Shown here in pieces: positions 8,511-61,373 of a DNA stretch of 64,000 bases. Each line of letters opens with the position of its first letter. Within the stretch, counting starts at the first letter, position 1. Origin of the DNA: Candidatus Doudnabacteria bacterium (GTDB taxonomy: Bacteria > Patescibacteriota > Doudnabacteria > UBA920 > O2-02-FULL-48-8); NCBI GenBank assembly GCA_016182875.1, contig JACPFQ010000010.1:1268-65267 (forward strand). Direction: 5' to 3'. The notes below the pieces were generated by a model. That model made no database searches. It worked only from the letters and a program-made list of their open reading frames with translations, and was not told the origin of the DNA. The position numbers were made by a program, and so were the translations under genes.

Positions 8511-9065
8511 CTACTTCCCTCCACCTACAGCCTTAACAACCTTACCTGCCTTTCTGCGAATAATCTCATCAGCGTACTTGATGCCCTTGCCTTTATACGG
8601 TTCCGGCGGTCTCAATCCGCGGACAACGGCCGCAAACTGCCCAACAGCTTGTTTGTCGGCGCCAGTTAGGGTAATGATATTCTTTTCTACTTTGGCTTCA
8701 AGTCCGGAAGGAACCGCAAGCTCAATCGGATGCGAATAGCCCAAATTTAATACCATTTTTTTTCCCGAAACCGCGGCTTTATATCCGACACCGTTTACTT
8801 CCAGACTTTTGGCAAACCCCGAAGTCACTCCTGTCACCATATTGTTTATAAGCGAGCGGAACAAGCCCCAAAGCGCTTTTTCCTGCTTGGATTGCTTATC
8901 GCTGATATCAACTGACAACTCGGAGTTCTGCATGATTAATTTGATTTTAGGATGCAAAGGTAAATTCAGCTCCCCCTTGGGACCTTTAATCTTCAAGGTG
9001 TCAGGTTTCAAGTCGACGGTAACCCCTGACGGTATTAAAATTGGTTTTTTGCCTATCCTTGACAT
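8511..9065 (-). CDS. rplF: ribosomal protein L6
   Basis: Start MSRIGKKPI; two L6 repeats. Confidence 0.9.
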   Translation of the reverse strand: MSRIGKKPILIPSGVTVDLKPDTLKIKGPKGELNLPLHPKIKLIMQNSELSVDISDKQSKQEKALWGLFRSLINNMVTGVTSGFAKSLEVNGVGYKAAVSGKKMVLNLGYSHPIELAVPSGLEAKVEKNIITLTGADKQAVGQFAAVVRGLRPPEPYKGKGIKYADEIIRRKAGKVVKAVGGGK

Positions 9066-9069
9066 AGTT

Positions 9070-9462
9070 TTACCATACCTGGCAGATAATTTCTCCCCCA
9101 ATTTTTTCTTTGCGTGCCGAAGAATCGGTCATCACTCCCTTGGACGTTGAGACAATGACCGTACCCATGCCGCCTAAGACTCTTGGCAAATCAGAATTTT
9201 TCCGATAGATGCGCTGGCCCGGCTTGCTGACCCGCGAAATTCCCGAAAGCGCCGGCTCGCCCTCTTGATTGTATTTCAATTCAATCAGCAGGGATTTAAA
9301 TTTAGTGTCATCTTTTACCTGAAAATTCTTTATCCAGCCATTATCGGCCAAGACCTTGGACAAACTGTGTTTGAATTTGGAATAAGGAACCACAACCTCG
9401 GCTTTCCGAGCGCTGTAGGCGTTTCTTATTCTGGTTAGCATATCTGATATAGGGTCTGTCAT
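9070..9462 (-). CDS. rpsH: ribosomal protein S8
   Basis: Start MTDPISDMLTRIRNA. Confidence 0.9.
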   Translation of the reverse strand: MTDPISDMLTRIRNAYSARKAEVVVPYSKFKHSLSKVLADNGWIKNFQVKDDTKFKSLLIELKYNQEGEPALSGISRVSKPGQRIYRKNSDLPRVLGGMGTVIVSTSKGVMTDSSARKEKIGGEIICQVW

Positions 9463-18840: not shown

Positions 18841-18900
18841 CCTTCTCCCCTTGCGGGAGAAGGTGGCCGCAGGCCGGATGAGGGGTAGCAAAGTACCCGC
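18841..18900. repeat. GC-rich hairpin element (ccttctcccc-ttgc-gggagaagg + ggccgcaggccggatgagggg)
   Basis: Shares modules with the elements at 56996-57146, 24069-24196 and 59664-59745. Confidence 0.6.
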
Positions 18901-20274: not shown

Positions 20275-20302
20275 TACTGCAATACGTTCCCGTATTGCAG
20301 TA
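20275..20302. repeat. perfect palindrome tactgcaatacg-ttcc-cgtattgcagta (family member)
   Basis: Other copies at 30477-30504, 57758-57785 and 60105-60133; two further hairpins lie at 20224-20273. Confidence 0.7.
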
Positions 20303-24046: not shown

Positions 24047-24068
24047 AGTATTATCACTTCAGTTTAGA

Positions 24069-24196
24069 CTCCCCTCTCCTTCCAGGAGAGAAATTCTCTA
24101 CCTCACCAGCTGCCGAGAGCTGGTCGGGGGAGAGGTGGCTTAAGTTTGCCATGCCCACCCCACCCTTTAATCCCTCCCCTGGAAGGGGAGGGAAAT
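24069..24196. repeat. GC-rich multi-hairpin element upstream of rpsL
   Basis: ctctcc-ttcc-aggagag; cagctgccgagagctg; ccctcccc-tggaa-ggggaggg. Confidence 0.55.
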
Positions 24197-24293
24197 TATA
24201 ATTTGTTAAAAGTCTGAGCAAATAAAAACGGTCATAAGACCGCGTGCAACTCTACGCAGGTTTCGAAACAAAGAATAACAATTTCCGCCAGCC

Positions 24294-30476: not shown

Positions 30477-30504
30477 TACTGCAATACGTTCCCGTATTGC
30501 AGTA
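30477..30504. repeat. palindrome tactgcaatacg-ttcc-cgtattgcagta
   Basis: Identical to the 20275 copy and preceded by aatcttga, as at 57750. Confidence 0.7.
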
Positions 30505-56385: not shown

Positions 56386-57749
56386 TTCAAAGCTTTTTCT
56401 ATCTGTTTCTTGGTGATTGGCCCTTCTCTTAATATTTTAACATGTTCAATCAAAGAAACCACTGTGGATGGCTTTGTTTTCGGCAGTCCGCCGCCGTCCA
56501 AAAATGTTATATTCGTACTTAACTTGGACTTAGCAAATTGTTTCTTAACTTCCGAAATGGAATAACAATCAGGCCCACCGGCGATATTGGCCGAAGTGGT
56601 GGTGATTGGCTTGCCAAGTTCTTCAACTAAAGCTCGAGCTAATTTGTGCGCCGGATACCTTACCCCAAGCGTCCTAGTTCCTGCCGAAAGCATTTGCCAG
56701 GATTTACCTTTGGCCTTAAGCGGCAAAACAATCGTCAACGGCCCCGGCCAGAATTTTTTTATCAATTTCTTGGCGTGAGTATTAAGTTTGACTATTTTGC
56801 CAATACTATAATACGGCGCAGTATTAGAGTAAGAGCAAATAACGTGCACTGGTTTTTTAAACCCCCGACCCTTAAGCTTATACAGCTTCCTGACGGCAAT
56901 AACATTAGTTGCGTCCACGGCCAGGCCATAAGAAGTGTCCGTGGGATAAACCACAATACCGCCAGCCTTCAGGGTTTTTACAGCCTTTGAGACTGACCCC
57001 TCACCCCTAGCCCCTCTCCCTTTGGGAGAGGGGAACCCTAGCGCTTTATCCAAAGCGTCAGGCCGCAGTTCCCTTCTCCCATCGGGAGAAGAAATTCCCT
57101 CCCTCATCTCCCGCCGGGGGCTTGGCCGAAGGCCGGATGAAGGGTTGCCGAGCTTAAACTTTTTTATCACTCGCGTTACTTGATGCCAAAAATTAACTTC
57201 AGTAATCGCCACTTCTTGAGGAACGAAATTCAATCTGAGTCCTTTCCACTTTTGTGCAATCGCTTTTGCGTCAAGTGGATTTTTAAACATTGCCAAGGTT
57301 ATATGAGGGTAAAAATTTTTCAGAATATGTCGGCTGCCAAAATTCTTTCTATATTCCAGCCCCTGCTTGCTAACATGTTTGCTCGTTACCGGCATCATTC
57401 CCGTCCTTAGATCCCTAAGCGAGTAAACCATTGCTTCATGCAACGCTCTCAGCCTTTTCGAGTTGCTTAAACCAATACCAAACCAGGAACGGCCAACTTC
57501 ATTACCTACATCCAAAGCGATAGATCTAATTTCGGGTAGTTTATGTTTTTTTATAACATCCTGAATTATCTGTGCCATCTTTTTGAGTTTTTGATTAGAA
57601 GAACGAATATGGAATAAACTAACATGCGGGATCAGTATTTTATTATCCACAACAAAAATATGCGGATACCCTTGAGCCGCATGTTTTATTTGCGTTCCGA
57701 GTTTGTGTCTAAGCTCCGCCGGCGGCAGAATGACTATATCTAACAGCAT
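56382..57749 (-). CDS. continuous ORF: N-terminal 2H phosphoesterase (LigT-like, two HxT/S motifs) - GC-rich hairpin linker - C-terminal TsaC/YrdC (L-threonylcarbamoyladenylate synthase) domain
   Basis: PHVSLFHI and PHITLAMF (2H motifs); GGIVVYPTDTSYGL (YrdC motif). No stop across the 56996-57146 hairpin element. May be two genes with alternative start MREGISS at 57107. Confidence 0.55.
   Translation of the reverse strand: MLLDIVILPPAELRHKLGTQIKHAAQGYPHIFVVDNKILIPHVSLFHIRSSNQKLKKMAQIIQDVIKKHKLPEIRSIALDVGNEVGRSWFGIGLSNSKRLRALHEAMVYSLRDLRTGMMPVTSKHVSKQGLEYRKNFGSRHILKNFYPHITLAMFKNPLDAKAIAQKWKGLRLNFVPQEVAITEVNFWHQVTRVIKKFKLGNPSSGLRPSPRREMREGISSPDGRRELRPDALDKALGFPSPKGRGARGEGSVSKAVKTLKAGGIVVYPTDTSYGLAVDATNVIAVRKLYKLKGRGFKKPVHVICSYSNTAPYYSIGKIVKLNTHAKKLIKKFWPGPLTIVLPLKAKGKSWQMLSAGTRTLGVRYPAHKLARALVEELGKPITTTSANIAGGPDCYSISEVKKQFAKSKLSTNITFLDGGGLPKTKPSTVVSLIEHVKILREGPITKKQIEKALK
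56996..57146. repeat. GC-rich hairpin element inside the 2H/TsaC ORF
   Basis: cccctctccc-tttg-ggagagggg; cccttctccc-atc-gggagaag; tggccgaaggccggatgaagggt, as at 18841. Confidence 0.6.
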
Positions 57750-57757
57750 AATCTTGA

Positions 57758-57785
57758 TACTGCAATACGGGAAAGTATTGCAGTA
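57758..57785. repeat. palindrome tactgcaatacg-ggaaa-gtattgcagta
   Basis: Family member, between the membrane-protein stop and the 2H gene start. Confidence 0.65.
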
Positions 57786-57787
57786 TT

Positions 57788-58360
57788 TTACAATTTTCTT
57801 CTTGCAAACAATGTTTCGGCTAACTGACTTGCTACGATTGCTGCCACCAAAACCGTCAGATACCACTTGAGAATGTCCGCAAAGCTTCCCGGCATGCCGC
57901 GGTAAGCGCCGATAACCGCGGCCGTGTACCACGAAGTTATGGAAATCGAACCGAGGGCAAAAGCCAGCCTTCGCCAGTAACGAGGAATTTGCAACAACTG
58001 GCCGGTGAAAATCTGCTCCACTCTCGGAGCGACCAGAAAGTTCAACCCTATCCCATTCATGATAATTACCGCAAACACGATCATTTTGACCAAAAACTTC
58101 GGCGTTTGGTTATATGCGGAGGCGGAAGATAAATAAAGAGCCAGGCCGGAGAGGACAATAAAAATTAACGCCACCCAAATAACTTGGGAAAGCGAGCTTA
58201 ATATGGTGCTTTCTTCCTTCGTGATTTTTAGATCTTTAAGAAAGCGAAAAAATAAAAAATCGGCCACGGTTGCCGCGCCCAAGCCCACCGCGATGCTCAA
58301 AAGGTGGGCGATTAAAAACAGTTGATGATATTGTTCCGCTAACTCTGCCATCGTTTGCAT
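57788..58360 (-). CDS. hypothetical membrane protein (4-5 TM)
   Basis: Hydrophobic 190 aa. Confidence 0.45.
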   Translation of the reverse strand: MQTMAELAEQYHQLFLIAHLLSIAVGLGAATVADFLFFRFLKDLKITKEESTILSSLSQVIWVALIFIVLSGLALYLSSASAYNQTPKFLVKMIVFAVIIMNGIGLNFLVAPRVEQIFTGQLLQIPRYWRRLAFALGSISITSWYTAAVIGAYRGMPGSFADILKWYLTVLVAAIVASQLAETLFARRKL

Positions 58361-58364
58361 GGGT

Positions 58365-61300
58365 TTATTTAATCACGAAGTTAATCAGTTTATCAGGCAC
58401 AAAAATTTCTTTGACGATTTTTTTGCCCTCCAGGTGCCTGTTCACGTTTTCGCCTGCCAAAGCTTTTTCTTTCACTTCCTGCTGAGAAGTGCCAGCAGGC
58501 ATTTCCAAAGTCGCTCGGACCTTGCCGAGCACCTGCACTACGAAGGTCACCTTCGTATCCTGGGCAAGCTTGGGATCAAATTTGGGCCATTCCTTCAAAT
58601 GAATCGAGTCTTTGTGACCTAGCTGGTGCCAAAGCTCTTCGGTCAGATGCGGCGCAAAGGGTGCTAAGAGTTTCAAAAATTCTTGCCATTCTTCTTTTGT
58701 TACGAAATCAACTTCAATCCTATTTTCATCTTCGCTAACCTTCCAAACCTCATTCAAATAAATCATCATCTGACTAATGGCTGTATTGAACCTAAAACCC
58801 TCGATATCTTGTGTTACTTTTTTGATAGTTTTGTGCAGTAGATTCTTTTTTTCAACCCTAGGCAAATCTTTGGATATTTCTTGATATCTTAATACTCTAT
58901 CCAAGAATCTCTTAATACCCATAATCCCTTTGTCATTCCAACTAACCGTGTCACCATGCGGGCCCAAAAACATTTCATACATGCGCAGAGCATCCGCGCC
59001 GAATTTTTCAATAATCTCATCGGGATTCACCACATTGCCCCGACTTTTGCTCATCTTTTCTCCATCGGGACCTAAAACAATCCCGTGCGGCACGCGCTTG
59101 GTGAACGGCTCCTTGGCTGTCACATGGCCTTGGTCATACAGAAACAAATTCCAGAAGCGCGAATAAAGCAAGTGCAGAGTGGTATGTTCCATGCCGCCGA
59201 AATAAACATCTACTGGCGTCCAGCGCTTCAATAATTTCTTACCAGCCATTTCTTTTTTATTATCTGGGTCCGCATAACGCAGCCAATACCAAGAACTGCC
59301 CGCCCATTGGGGCATGGTGTTCGTCTCTCTTTTAGCGGGGCCACCACAATTCGGACATTTCACATTCACCCACTCATCAATCGCGGCCAATGGCGACTCG
59401 CCGGTTCCTGTCGGCTCATAGTCTTTTACTTCAGGCAATGTCACCGGCAAGTCTTCTTCGGGCACAGGCACTGTTCCACAATTTTGGCAATGAATCAGCG
59501 GAATCGGCTCGCCCCAATAGCGTTGACGGGAAAATACCCAATCGCGGAGCTTGTACTGCACTTTCGGTTGCCCGAAATCCTTGGCTATTTTTTTTCTTGC
59601 TTCTTCTGTACTCATCCCGTCATATCCGTCAGAATTTATCAAAAGCCCTTCGCCGGTAAATAACTCCCCCTCACCCCCTCTTATATTAAGAGGGGGTTCC
59701 TCTGCAGTTTCACCTCCCCTTAAATTAAGGGGAGGCTGGGAGGGGTTATTGATCACGGTTCTTATCGGCAGTTTATATTGCTTAGCAAATTCAAAATCGC
59801 GCTCATCGTGGGCGGGTACAGCCATGATAGCGCCCGTGCCGTATCCCATAAGCACATAGTCCGCGACCCAGATTGGAATCTCCTCTTTGGTCGCAGGATT
59901 AACAGCGTAAGAACCTAAAAATATTCCGGTTTTTTCTTTTTCTACTGCGGCCCGCTGCATATCTGTTTTCTTTTTCGCATTTTCTATATATTTTTTAACT
60001 TCCGCCCAATTCTTGATTTGAGATTTAAGATTTGAGATTAATGGATGTTCTGGAGCCAAAACTAAAAATGTCGCCCCGGGCAAAGTATCAACTCTCGTAG
60101 TGAATACTGCAATACGTGACAGTATTATAGTAAGCAACTCAGGCTCTTGTTCATCTAAGAAATGAGGTTTGGCTGCGGCCGCTTTAATTAGATTGACACC
60201 AAGCTTTGCAGCATATGATTCTCCGTCTGACATCGCAACAACGTAATCTGTGGTATCTGATATAACTTTGAAGAAACCGCAATTCTTTATTACAGCTGCA
60301 AAATCAAAACCTTTTTTTGCCGCAGCTGTGACAGTCGGACGATTTTTACCATCCATAAACTTCCCAGTAAAAGGTGTTGCAACCAAAATTGCCCCTGCCA
60401 ATCTCGCGCCTCGTTCAAGCAAACGAAGCGCTACGATACCGCCGAACGAATGGCCAATAACTACGGTGTGTTCATCCAGGTTGCAATGCTGTTGTATAAA
60501 ATCTGCACACTCGTCATCCTTCGGCTCCTCCCCGCCGGGCATTTGAGGCGACTGAACTTCAAATCCTTTACTCTCCAACTTTTTCTTTAACCAAGTATAA
60601 AAATGATCTTTTGGTCTGCTTCCCCGACCATGCAAAATAATAAATTTCCTGATTCCTTTTTGCGCTATTGGAAATTCTATTTCAGCCCCCTCACTTTTAC
60701 CTATCCAGTTTTCCTGCTGGAGTTTCACTGGCTCCGGCCATTCTTTAAGTTCTTTCAGGCCTTCCAGCAACTTTTCGGCATATGCCGTAATTTTAAGATA
60801 CCACTGCCGCAGTTCTTTTTTCTCAACCACGGTGCCGCAGCGCTCGCAGCGGCCGTCGATGACCTCTTCGTTGGCAAGGCCGGTTTTATCTTTGGGGCAC
60901 CAGTTAATAAGTCCGGTCGCTTCGTAAGCCAATCCGGCTTTGTAGAATTGCAAAAAAATCCACTGCGTCCATTTGAAGTAATCTGGGTCCGTGGTATTGA
61001 TTTCCCGCGACCAGTCAAAGCTTATACCCCAGTTTTGCAGCTGTTTTTTGGCATTGGCAATATTTTTGGCCGTCGAAACGCGCGGATGAACTTTGTTTTT
61101 AATCGCGAAATTTTCCGCAGGCAAGCCAAAAGCGTCCCAGCCAATTGGGTACAGAACCTCGCAACCCTTCATGCGAAAATAACGGCTGTATGTATCCCCG
61201 GCTGTGTACGGCCGCAAATGCCCCATATGCAAACCTTCGCCGGAAGGATACGGAAACTCAATCAGCACGTACTTCTTCGGCTTTTTGCCGGCATCGGAAG

Positions 61301-61373
61301 CCTGGTAGGTTTTTTCTTTCTCCCAGGCATTCTGCCATTTTTTTTCTATCGCTTTGTGATCGTATTTGGTCAT
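58365..61373 (-). CDS. leuS: leucyl-tRNA synthetase with inserted alpha/beta serine-hydrolase (YdeN/RBBP9-like) domain and in-frame palindromic insert
   Basis: HMGH (GLHMGHL), CP1 start VFTTRVDTLPGATF, KMSKS (EKMSKSRGN). About 190 extra aa (ILHGRGSRP...GHSFGG) lie between the NWIGKSEGAEIEF and VFTTR motifs. Confidence 0.9.
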   Translation of the reverse strand: MTKYDHKAIEKKWQNAWEKEKTYQASDAGKKPKKYVLIEFPYPSGEGLHMGHLRPYTAGDTYSRYFRMKGCEVLYPIGWDAFGLPAENFAIKNKVHPRVSTAKNIANAKKQLQNWGISFDWSREINTTDPDYFKWTQWIFLQFYKAGLAYEATGLINWCPKDKTGLANEEVIDGRCERCGTVVEKKELRQWYLKITAYAEKLLEGLKELKEWPEPVKLQQENWIGKSEGAEIEFPIAQKGIRKFIILHGRGSRPKDHFYTWLKKKLESKGFEVQSPQMPGGEEPKDDECADFIQQHCNLDEHTVVIGHSFGGIVALRLLERGARLAGAILVATPFTGKFMDGKNRPTVTAAAKKGFDFAAVIKNCGFFKVISDTTDYVVAMSDGESYAAKLGVNLIKAAAAKPHFLDEQEPELLTIILSRIAVFTTRVDTLPGATFLVLAPEHPLISNLKSQIKNWAEVKKYIENAKKKTDMQRAAVEKEKTGIFLGSYAVNPATKEEIPIWVADYVLMGYGTGAIMAVPAHDERDFEFAKQYKLPIRTVINNPSQPPLNLRGGETAEEPPLNIRGGEGELFTGEGLLINSDGYDGMSTEEARKKIAKDFGQPKVQYKLRDWVFSRQRYWGEPIPLIHCQNCGTVPVPEEDLPVTLPEVKDYEPTGTGESPLAAIDEWVNVKCPNCGGPAKRETNTMPQWAGSSWYWLRYADPDNKKEMAGKKLLKRWTPVDVYFGGMEHTTLHLLYSRFWNLFLYDQGHVTAKEPFTKRVPHGIVLGPDGEKMSKSRGNVVNPDEIIEKFGADALRMYEMFLGPHGDTVSWNDKGIMGIKRFLDRVLRYQEISKDLPRVEKKNLLHKTIKKVTQDIEGFRFNTAISQMMIYLNEVWKVSEDENRIEVDFVTKEEWQEFLKLLAPFAPHLTEELWHQLGHKDSIHLKEWPKFDPKLAQDTKVTFVVQVLGKVRATLEMPAGTSQQEVKEKALAGENVNRHLEGKKIVKEIFVPDKLINFVIK
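59664..59745. repeat. GC-rich double-hairpin element translated in-frame within leuS (PPLNLRGGETAEEPPLNIRGGEGE)
   Basis: ccccctctta-tatt-aagaggggg and cctcccctta-aatt-aaggggagg. Confidence 0.65.

Follow-up and report, generated by a model that had tools for sequence, protein, structure and literature searches.

A nested-palindrome repeat read in frame in leuS of a Candidatus Doudnabacteria genome and its relatives in other bacterial phyla

The Rickettsia palindromic elements (RPEs) occur both between genes and in frame inside housekeeping genes, as summarised from Ogata 2000 and 2002 in PMC10969869. Multicopy nucleotide sequences situated inside genes without causing frameshifts have also been described in Geobacter (PMC2996986, PMC2700814). 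For the most part, "selfish" palindromes of the in-frame kind have been regarded as peculiar to Rickettsia. Here we describe the same behaviour in the Candidate Phyla Radiation (CPR), for an element lying inside the leuS gene, which encodes leucyl-tRNA synthetase (LeuRS), in a stretch of 64,000 nucleotides from a Candidatus Doudnabacteria genome (contig JACPFQ010000010.1). The whole stretch is referred to as the window.

The leuS element is a nested palindrome, it is read in frame, it belongs to a repeat family, and at this site it is present in some lineages and absent in others, with modules gained and lost. We consider it probable that the insert belongs, as a single copy, to a widespread family of repeats which are small nested palindromes and have no coding capacity of their own. 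The gene and the parts of the element are as follows.

58368-61373, minus strand: leuS coding sequence (LeuRS, 1002 aa; 100% identical to P0001), with the stop codon at 58365-58367
59661-59748, plus strand: complete nested-hairpin element of the "double" form, A->B; full-length match to the family model R1; architecture as in loci L022, L030, L035, L047 and L085
59661-59670, plus strand: outer left arm TAACTCCCCC, type A, pairing with the outer right arm in the predicted fold
59673-59697, plus strand: hairpin A, ACCCCCTCTTA-tat-TAAGAGGGGGT, with perfect 11-bp arms
59698-59712, plus strand: spacer between hairpins A and B, encoding ETAEE
59713-59735, plus strand: hairpin B, CCTCCCCTTAA-a-TTAAGGGGAGG, with perfect 11-bp arms
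59738-59748, plus strand: outer right arm GGGAGGGGTTA, type B, a mirror image of the hairpin B purine arm

The element starts with TAAC and ends with GTTA, spanning 88 nt, or 90 nt with the A and the T that usually flank it. The order on the plus strand (59661-59748) is TAACTCCCCC-tca-[CCCCCTCTTA tat TAAGAGGGGG]-ttcctctgcagtttca-[CCTCCCCTTA aat TAAGGGGAGG]-ct-GGGAGGGGTTA, and the leuS coding strand reads it B->A. An earlier interpretation made from the letters alone (the sequence-only reading) had placed here an 82-nt element at 59664-59745 with two perfect 9-bp hairpins; the element and both perfect hairpins are indeed there, but the arms are 11 bp long, and comparison with the family moves the boundaries to the 88-nt interval. 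The starts of hairpins A and B are offset by 39 nt, that is, by 13 codons. The degenerate hairpin pattern CCYCCYCTTANNNTAAGRGGRGG has two matches in the window, compared to 0.01 expected from shuffled sequences. The mRNA-strand fold of the element consists of the outer stem and two hairpins (-54.9 kcal/mol, z = -6.2), and none of 200 shuffles yields a fold as stable as this.

The family is described by a covariance model, R1, constructed from 15 double copies in other genomes and phyla, the window copy not being used in training. The leuS element matches all 89 positions of R1 (1-89) and scores 92.8 bits, with E 8.6e-26. The basic unit is formed by TAAC with a pyrimidine tract, about 2 nt, a hairpin, about 2 nt, and a purine tract with GTTA; the inner hairpin is a pyrimidine arm followed by TTA, about 3 nt, and TAA followed by a purine arm. 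Units occur as "single" forms of 48-52 nt and "double" forms of 74-111 nt, the latter being a type-A half joined to a type-B half. The window element has every part of this scheme: the outer arms, the inner TTA...TAA hairpins, and the A half joined to the B half. The terminal inverted repeats (C)ATAACTCCCCC ... GGGGGAGTTAT(G) were observed in 30 complete copies.

In a scan of one genome per species, the inner-hairpin pattern CCYCCYCTTANNNTAAGRGGRGG was found in at least 120 genome stretches, the rough chance estimate for this pattern (about 36 bits) being about 9, and the full architecture is visible in the flanks, which the pattern left unconstrained. The carriers among the matches listed are Patescibacteria (Uhr-, Gottesman- and Saccharibacteria, Doudnabacteria and others), Nitrospirota, Geobacter and other Desulfuromonadales, Syntrophaceae (Syntrophia), other Deltaproteobacteria, some Gammaproteobacteria, Clostridia and Dehalococcoidia. 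The inner-hairpin pattern is also present in 35 viral contigs. The pattern requiring only the outer arms (TAACTCCCCC N22-40 GGGGGAGTTA) matches at least 120 metagenome stretches, and about three quarters of the 126 outer-arm matches listed contain a type-A or closely similar inner hairpin, though none was required. Many metagenome copies are situated at contig ends, as expected for multicopy repeats. The motif is thus by no means unique to the window, given the R1 match and the genomic, metagenomic and viral copies. A viral scan with TGGCCGNAGGCCGGA was set aside, since most of what it matched was either a coding motif of IS66-like transposases or noise from GC-rich coding sequence, and only a few matches were true elements.

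The family does not seem to have been catalogued. In Rfam, only tRNAs pass the gathering score in the window and no family matches the element, while at E up to 10 the region 56800-59900 yields only chance microRNA-type matches; literature searches by sequence string and by topic, together with the Geobacter supplements, returned no description of it. In a metagenome-assembled genome of the Desulfuromonadaceae (L040, 2700-4250), a unit of about 220 nt is repeated in tandem, each unit containing one complete double element and, next to it, a conserved stretch of about 130 nt.

The protein encoded by leuS is identical (100%) to P0001, an NCBI protein of Candidatus Doudnabacteria, a CPR lineage. 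Its open reading frame (ORF) is uninterrupted, and the HMGH and KMSKS motifs are present. The minus-strand frame across the element is ...LPIRTVINNPSQPPLNLRGGETAEEPPLNIRGGEGELFTGEGLLINSDGYDG..., exactly as the sequence-only reading had it, the coding strand at the element being ...PIRTVINNPSQPPLNLRGGETAEEPPLNIRGGEGELFTGEGLL... and the predicted peptide stretches spanning the insert being ...VINNPSQPPLNLR / GGETAEEPPLNIR / GGEGELFTGEGLLINSDGYDGMSTEEAR. The element encodes approximately residues 542-571. In the AlphaFold2 model of LeuRS, based on a 40-sequence alignment, the mean predicted local distance difference test score (pLDDT) is 84.6, and the element-encoded residues 549-568 (LNLRGGETAEEPPLNIRGGE) form the only long segment with pLDDT below 50, bordered on both sides by confident strands. 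Hence the element peptide is predicted to be a disordered loop of about 25-30 residues, and we infer that it is translated and tolerated in LeuRS.

The host loop is a variable loop of the LeuRS editing (CP1) domain. The insertion site aligns with the variable stretch after PIKKVI in the editing domain of Thermus thermophilus LeuRS (1H3N). In other Patescibacteria, the corresponding loop (window 59646-59750) accommodates whole extra domains of 100-200 residues, in which Pfam marks NUDIX (PF00293), methyltransferase (PF13489), HAD (PF13419) and further hydrolases; the homologs with such domain-sized loops include P0005, P0024, P0030, P0033, P0036, P0043, P0052 and P0094. The earlier suggestion that the element is tolerated in a surface loop of an essential protein therefore fares well, the loop being variable, its insert predicted to be disordered, and LeuRS intact. 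Separately, an alpha/beta-hydrolase domain (PF06821/PF12697) is situated at the start of the editing domain (window about 60120-60662, minus strand, residues about 238-418). It is common to most Doudnabacteria and Patescibacteria homologs and has a confident predicted fold, with AlphaFold2 pLDDT of 88-97.

The gene order around leuS is retained among relatives (TatD, LeuRS, ..., TsaC, MFS, SHMT). At the orthologous sites, compared as had been proposed, both hairpins are absent in L004, the closest ortholog (68% identity), and in L284. These two genes are in frame and intact, and no frameshift is seen at the site, hence the element is not a sequencing artefact. L001 (from NCBI) and L002 (from ENA), independent assemblies of one relative, have both hairpins, the spacer and two extra modules. 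L003 has a single A unit in a different codon register, and L281, L282 and L283 have decayed or re-modelled versions. This pattern needs several gains or losses at the leuS site. The "empty" site of L284, and even distant orthologs, encode G-E-(x)-L-Y/F, and the corresponding DNA, GGnGAGTTATAy, resembles the GGGGGAGTTAT end of the element; a target or homology effect is a possible explanation of this similarity.

The expectation that copies inside coding sequences would have lengths divisible by three did not hold: neither 82 nor 88 is a multiple of 3, nor are in general the element lengths within coding sequences. The leuS frame is retained because the net insertion relative to the orthologs is a whole number of codons.

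Two further observations concern the vicinity of leuS in the relatives. In L004, which lacks the insert, A and B half-units are situated back to back at 8975-9076, in the intergenic region between a CysRS-like gene and tatD, 1 kb upstream of leuS. In L282 (541-673) and L283 (330-421), R1 matches of about 22 bits fall inside the tatD genes adjoining leuS, and the TatD proteins, at 318-321 aa, are longer than those of relatives (270-296 aa). Additional in-frame copies in Doudnabacteria are the probable explanation.

Within the family as a whole, both intergenic and in-frame copies occur; most are intergenic, and many of those in CPR genomes are in frame inside housekeeping genes. An open frame of at least 100 codons spans 37 of the 137 element clusters. 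Pfam domains are present on both sides of the in-frame element in GatA, LeuRS (at a second site), RuvB, transketolase (two copies), MurB, MurC and MutL, whereas in Fmt of another Doudnabacteria genome the element lies within the Formyl_trans_C domain; PrmC also has an in-frame copy. Under a stricter definition (a frame open for at least 300 nt on both sides), in-frame clusters constitute 9 of 28 in CPR and 4 of 94 in other phyla (Fisher p = 2e-4).

All intragenic copies examined are stop-free and preserve the frame. The pyrimidine and purine arms encode Pro/Leu/Ser and Gly/Arg/Glu/Lys, respectively. Hairpins of the window type have one stop-free frame per strand, as the TTA...TAA loop region puts TAA stops in the others; a different loop sequence may leave a second frame open as well. 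Since the element is palindromic, both orientations yield a similar peptide, PPLxxRGG, and the frames left open by the loop sequence account for the recurrence of such peptides and for variants such as PPYIKGG. The in-frame doubles are read B->A on the coding strand in six cases out of six (the window leuS, L089, L022, L047, L085 and, as a spanning ORF, L073), yielding NPSQPPL..RGG....PPL..RGGEGEL; six is a small sample, and an open frame exists in the opposite orientation, too.

The history consistent with these data would be the following. In an ancestor shared by a part of the Doudnabacteria, a copy would have entered, or been copied into, the LeuRS editing (CP1) domain at a surface loop that is hypervariable; thereafter, depending on the lineage, it would have been kept, decayed, been re-modelled by gain and loss of modules, or been lost. 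Its survival inside the gene could be explained by the amino acids encoded by the arms, the stop-free frame, and a loop that elsewhere accommodates whole domains. The family may have spread as a selfish repeat of the REP/MITE type (repetitive extragenic palindromes and miniature inverted-repeat transposable elements, respectively).

A number of facts weigh against this scenario. Neither a target-site duplication nor a consistent boundary rule was found in 30 complete copies. The element ends have no variable direct repeats, and the TA invariant at both ends may be either a TA duplication or a part of the element. The TAAC..GTTA lengths of the in-frame doubles are 88, 76, 86, 91 and 84, and if TA is read as a target-site duplication, the insert lengths (plus or minus 2) are not consistently multiples of 3 and do not fit the preserved frames. 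No transposase or REP-associated tyrosine transposase (RAYT) gene was detected near the copies in 2.0 Mb of loci by tblastn with a single Y1 query, a search of limited sensitivity, whose only matches were in L001 and L002; the window contains no Y1 gene. No parent insertion sequence with the same ends was seen among the loci examined. A composite transposon was considered and rejected in two cases, the 3 kb between two copies in L215 being katG and the interval between the copies in L275 containing only small ORFs. The 64-kb window has only one copy.

Some features of the sequence conservation also point the other way. The identity across phyla could reflect convergence on a functional structure instead of horizontal spread. 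Orthologs with no more than about 70-80% identity in the coding DNA on either side still have perfect hairpins. For the window and L001, identity in the coding flanks is about 70-85% per 60 columns, and 35 coding-strand nucleotides (GAAACTGCAGAGGAACCCCCTCTTAATATAAGAGG), from the spacer (59698-59712) into hairpin A, are identical; the outermost C-G pair of hairpin B is T-A in L001, having changed on both sides, so that pairing is preserved. The perfect hairpins and the 35-nt identity fit purifying selection on the nucleic-acid structure, or recent gene conversion, better than passive decay. The description of the element as REP/MITE-like thus stands as far as its behaviour is concerned, while the hallmarks looked for, a target-site duplication, an autonomous parent and a RAYT gene, were not found; hence "MITE/REP-like" denotes behaviour here, the mechanism being inferred.

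Among other candidate explanations, attC sites (with AAC/GTT core sites) and dif/Xer sites were set aside, since the consensus does not appear to fit. The terminus GGGGGAGTTATG (GTTATG) was considered as a Shine-Dalgarno sequence with a start codon and rejected, since an ORF of 60 or more codons begins at only 9 of the 54 ATGs, and termini lacking ATG do equally well. As a separate observation, L001 (2330-3020; L002 530-1170) contains, some 4 kb upstream of leuS, a gene for a Y1/IS200-like transposase (PF01797). The hairpin TGTGGAGGACGGACCTCCACA, which is not related to the leuS element, is present on either side of this gene, an arrangement resembling that of REPs and RAYTs.

The outer purine tract is a mirror image, and not the complement, of the hairpin purine arm. 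The observed mirror pairs are TAAG-AGGGGG/GGGGGA-GTTA, TAAG-GGGAGG/GGAGGG-GTTA, TAAG-AGGAGG/GGAGGA-GTTA and TAAG-GGGGGG/GGGGGG-GTTA. The inner and outer tracts covary in all four arm types, and no crossed combination is seen at either of the two variable positions (Fisher p 1e-38 and 1e-51, with copies, not independent events, being counted). Of 200 half-sites in the A/B family, 131 agree with the mirror rule throughout, and at the r2 position there is no case of G opposite A. If the outer tract is folded back, the oppositions are G.G, A.A and T.A, including GTT facing AAG, with T where the arm has A. The triplets of the antiparallel purine-motif triplex are G.G-C, A.A-T and T.A-T, the third strand running antiparallel to the purine strand. 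The mirror covariation is compatible with an intramolecular triplex of this kind, as far as can be judged from the sequences.

The window contains three other hairpin loci, which the sequence-only reading had regarded as related to the leuS element:

18841-18886, plus strand: intergenic second-family element, consisting of the hairpin CCTTCTCCC-cttgc-GGGAGAAGG (18841-18863), T, the mini-hairpin GGCCGCAGGCC and the tail GGATGAGGGG
24069-24196, plus strand: intergenic pyrimidine/purine hairpin cluster, including the hairpin 24171-24193 (R1 15.9 and 9.2 bits)
56996-57146, minus strand: hairpin-module cluster read in frame as the linker between the 2H-phosphoesterase and TsaC domains (R1 19.8 bits), consisting of the tract 56996-57007, the hairpins 57011-57033 and 57073-57091, and the mini-hairpin with a tail 57123-57145

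The hairpins at all three are real, but the kinship is not supported: R1 scores are 8.8-19.8 bits compared to 92.8 for leuS, and these loci have neither the TAAC/GTTA ends nor the TTA/TAA loop. The four loci are not one family; they share the style, pyrimidine arm, loop, purine arm, and a mirrored tract. In the first of the three, the tail GGATGAGGGG mirrors the purine arm, and in the last one the tract 56996-57007, in its minus-strand form GGGGTGAGGGG, mirrors by eye the purine arm of the hairpin at 57011. The 55-codon ORF at 24054-24221 on the minus strand consists almost wholly of the hairpin cluster and is a spurious small ORF of the kind such elements generate.

The in-frame read-through at 56996-57146, claimed earlier, agrees with the NCBI annotation of the 2H-TsaC ORF as one 455-aa protein (P0121). 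The fusion of the two domains is retained in six other Doudnabacteria-type proteins of 380-433 aa, with linkers of 2-3 to about 25 residues; the window linker is the longest, with about 50 extra residues formed by the hairpin modules. Since the fusion is conserved in relatives whose linkers vary, this is an insertion into a pre-existing linker, not a gene fusion caused by the element.

The element at 18841-18886 has counterparts in L292, L297, L394, L385, L398, L074, L134 and L176. This second family is unrelated in sequence to the A/B family; its members consist of a hairpin, then T, the mini-hairpin GGCCGnAGGCC serving as a turn, and a tail. In nine different arm sequences, the purine arm and the tail show 8-10 consecutive G.G, A.A or T.A oppositions, mostly with no Watson-Crick partner for the tail. 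Second-family modules are situated within 150 nt of TTA/TAA hairpins in 3 of 20 and 4 of 12 cases, compared to 5% of bases, so that the co-occurrence is only suggestive.

We tentatively entertain the possibility, on balance an unlikely one, that the leuS, 18841 and 56996 types constitute one class of elements folding as a hairpin with a fold-back purine third strand in single-stranded DNA, possibly also in RNA; the fold may then be what is recognised, propagated or selected. In such a class, as in H-DNA, a purine tract would mirror the purine arm of a duplex to which it is joined by a turn, with T allowed opposite A. The difference is that classical H-DNA is formed by mirror repeats in supercoiled duplex, whereas here the duplex would be the hairpin of a dispersed repeat. 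If this were true, CPR bacteria would carry triplex-forming repeats in many essential genes and translate them as loops, and a structured element found across phyla, absent from the libraries searched, would represent a new structural class of bacterial repeat.

These data bear on the main alternative to a tolerated mobile repeat, namely that the element is kept for a role of the nucleic acid itself, as structured DNA or RNA (a fold-back triplex or an mRNA three-way junction), while the protein merely tolerates it. We regard this as rather unlikely. Such a structure could have a part in replication or recombination, in the stability of the mRNA, or in pausing during transcription or translation, and this would be compatible with a mobile origin. 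The perfect hairpins in diverged orthologs, the paired change in L001, the conservation of the element, with its 35 identical nucleotides including the spacer, above that of the flanking codons, and the z-score of the fold all favour a structural role. So do the mirror covariation in all four arm types, the fact that GTTA facing TAAG fits the G.G and T.A triplets, and the runs of triplet matches in the second family, whose tails mostly have no other partner. However, 39 of the type-A half-sites, which number about 121, have C in place of the mirrored A, a non-canonical triplet; a fold-back would be expected to need a longer turn than the 0-2 nt usually present; and the outer tracts of the A/B family also form an ordinary Watson-Crick outer stem. 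Moreover, the closest leuS ortholog works without the element, which hence is not needed for leuS itself, no rule of orientation or position relative to genes was found, and the terminal ATG is not a gene start (9/54).

It is very unlikely that the peptide is what has been selected, that is, that Pro/Gly/Arg/Glu repeats of the PPLNLRGGE type serve as a functional linker or interaction motif, with the palindrome as a by-product. The insert is in frame in several lineages, and similar peptides are seen in other CPR proteins, as this explanation would have it; but most copies of the nucleotide element are intergenic, and it is found in phyla whose proteins differ, different frames produce different peptides (PPLNLRGG, PPYIKGG, SPSYLKRGLGG), and it is in the nucleotides that the palindromy, the outer arms and the spacer show conservation, while the peptide is predicted to be disordered and is absent in close orthologs. 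Even less probable is that the hairpins escape translation through ribosome bypass or removal from the RNA. Ribosomes reportedly bypass a segment of phage T4 gene 60, and GC-rich "byp" hairpins are said to occur in Magnusiomyces mitochondrial genes; the present element resembles the latter as a GC-rich palindrome inside a gene, and its structure within the coding region is very stable. On the other hand, bypassed elements need be neither stop-free nor frame-keeping, and hence the uniform behaviour of the intragenic copies examined counts against bypass; matching take-off and landing codons were not noted, with no systematic search made for frame-independent intragenic copies. Finally, although palindromes can cause assembly errors, an assembly or sequencing artefact or a leuS pseudogene has a negligible probability, given the same insert in two independent assemblies of a relative (L001 and L002), homologous inserts in five other orthologs, the intact ORF with its catalytic motifs, and the high-confidence AlphaFold2 model.

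One more palindrome, separate from the above, is present in the window. TACTGCAATACG...CGTATTGCAGTA occurs at 20275-20302, 30477-30504 and 57757-57786, with a half-site at 60105. Two of the 28-mers have the same sequence; the remaining one is situated 11 nt before the start codon of 2H-TsaC. Judging by its sequence and positions, it looks like an operator or regulator site.

A tolerated repeat of this kind, repeatedly found in essential enzymes (aminoacyl-tRNA synthetases, Mur ligases, RuvB, MutL, Fmt, GatA), provides a concrete source for many unexplained insertions in CPR proteins. It also creates an annotation hazard, in the form of spurious small ORFs such as the one at 24054-24221, and constitutes a natural data set showing where proteins tolerate loops of 15-30 residues.

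In E. coli, the tetranucleotide of REP sequences is GTAG. The present family shares with REP elements, with bacterial interspersed mosaic elements (BIMEs) and with REP doublets (REPINs) short GC-rich hairpins, a tetranucleotide adjacent to the stem (here TAAC), inverted pairs, mosaic clusters with other modules, and high copy number in some genomes; REPs have no target-site duplication, and no variable one was visible here. However, REPs are extragenic by definition, whereas the present family is also found in frame in genes; and a RAYT gene is flanked by the same REPs, whereas no Y1 gene was found near the present copies with the single tblastn query. Like MITEs, namely Correia/NEMIS, ERIC and the Coxiella QMITE (PMC10969869, PMC5896051, PMC2229807), the elements are non-coding, multicopy and of the 50-150 bp size class, with terminal inverted repeats and occasional in-frame fusions to host ORFs; as differences, a target-site duplication could not be shown for the present copies, the TA at both ends being open to either reading, and no parent insertion sequence is known. 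The Geobacter multicopy sequences represent the same kind of observation, and Geobacter and other Desulfuromonadales are among the main carriers of the present family, but the intragenic family of G. metallireducens is a repeat of the heptamer GGACCGG, and no match to the present arm sequences was found in the G. bemidjiensis supplements.

The closest parallel is with the RPEs. These, too, are small palindromes of a bacterium with a small genome, found in intergenic regions as well as in the reading frames of housekeeping genes that have nothing in common; they add a peptide without destroying the protein, and they are thought to sit at protein surfaces. RPEs are about 100-150 bp long and restricted to Rickettsia (PMC10969869). 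The likeness is one of behaviour only. The present elements, at 48-111 nt, have pyrimidine and purine arms and TAAC/GTTA ends and occur in many phyla, with intragenic copies concentrated in CPR. By this analogy, the leuS element would be best filed among palindromic repeats translated inside essential genes, as are the RPEs; what is new is the TAAC...GTTA architecture, the distribution across phyla, the enrichment of in-frame copies in CPR, and the mirror covariation.

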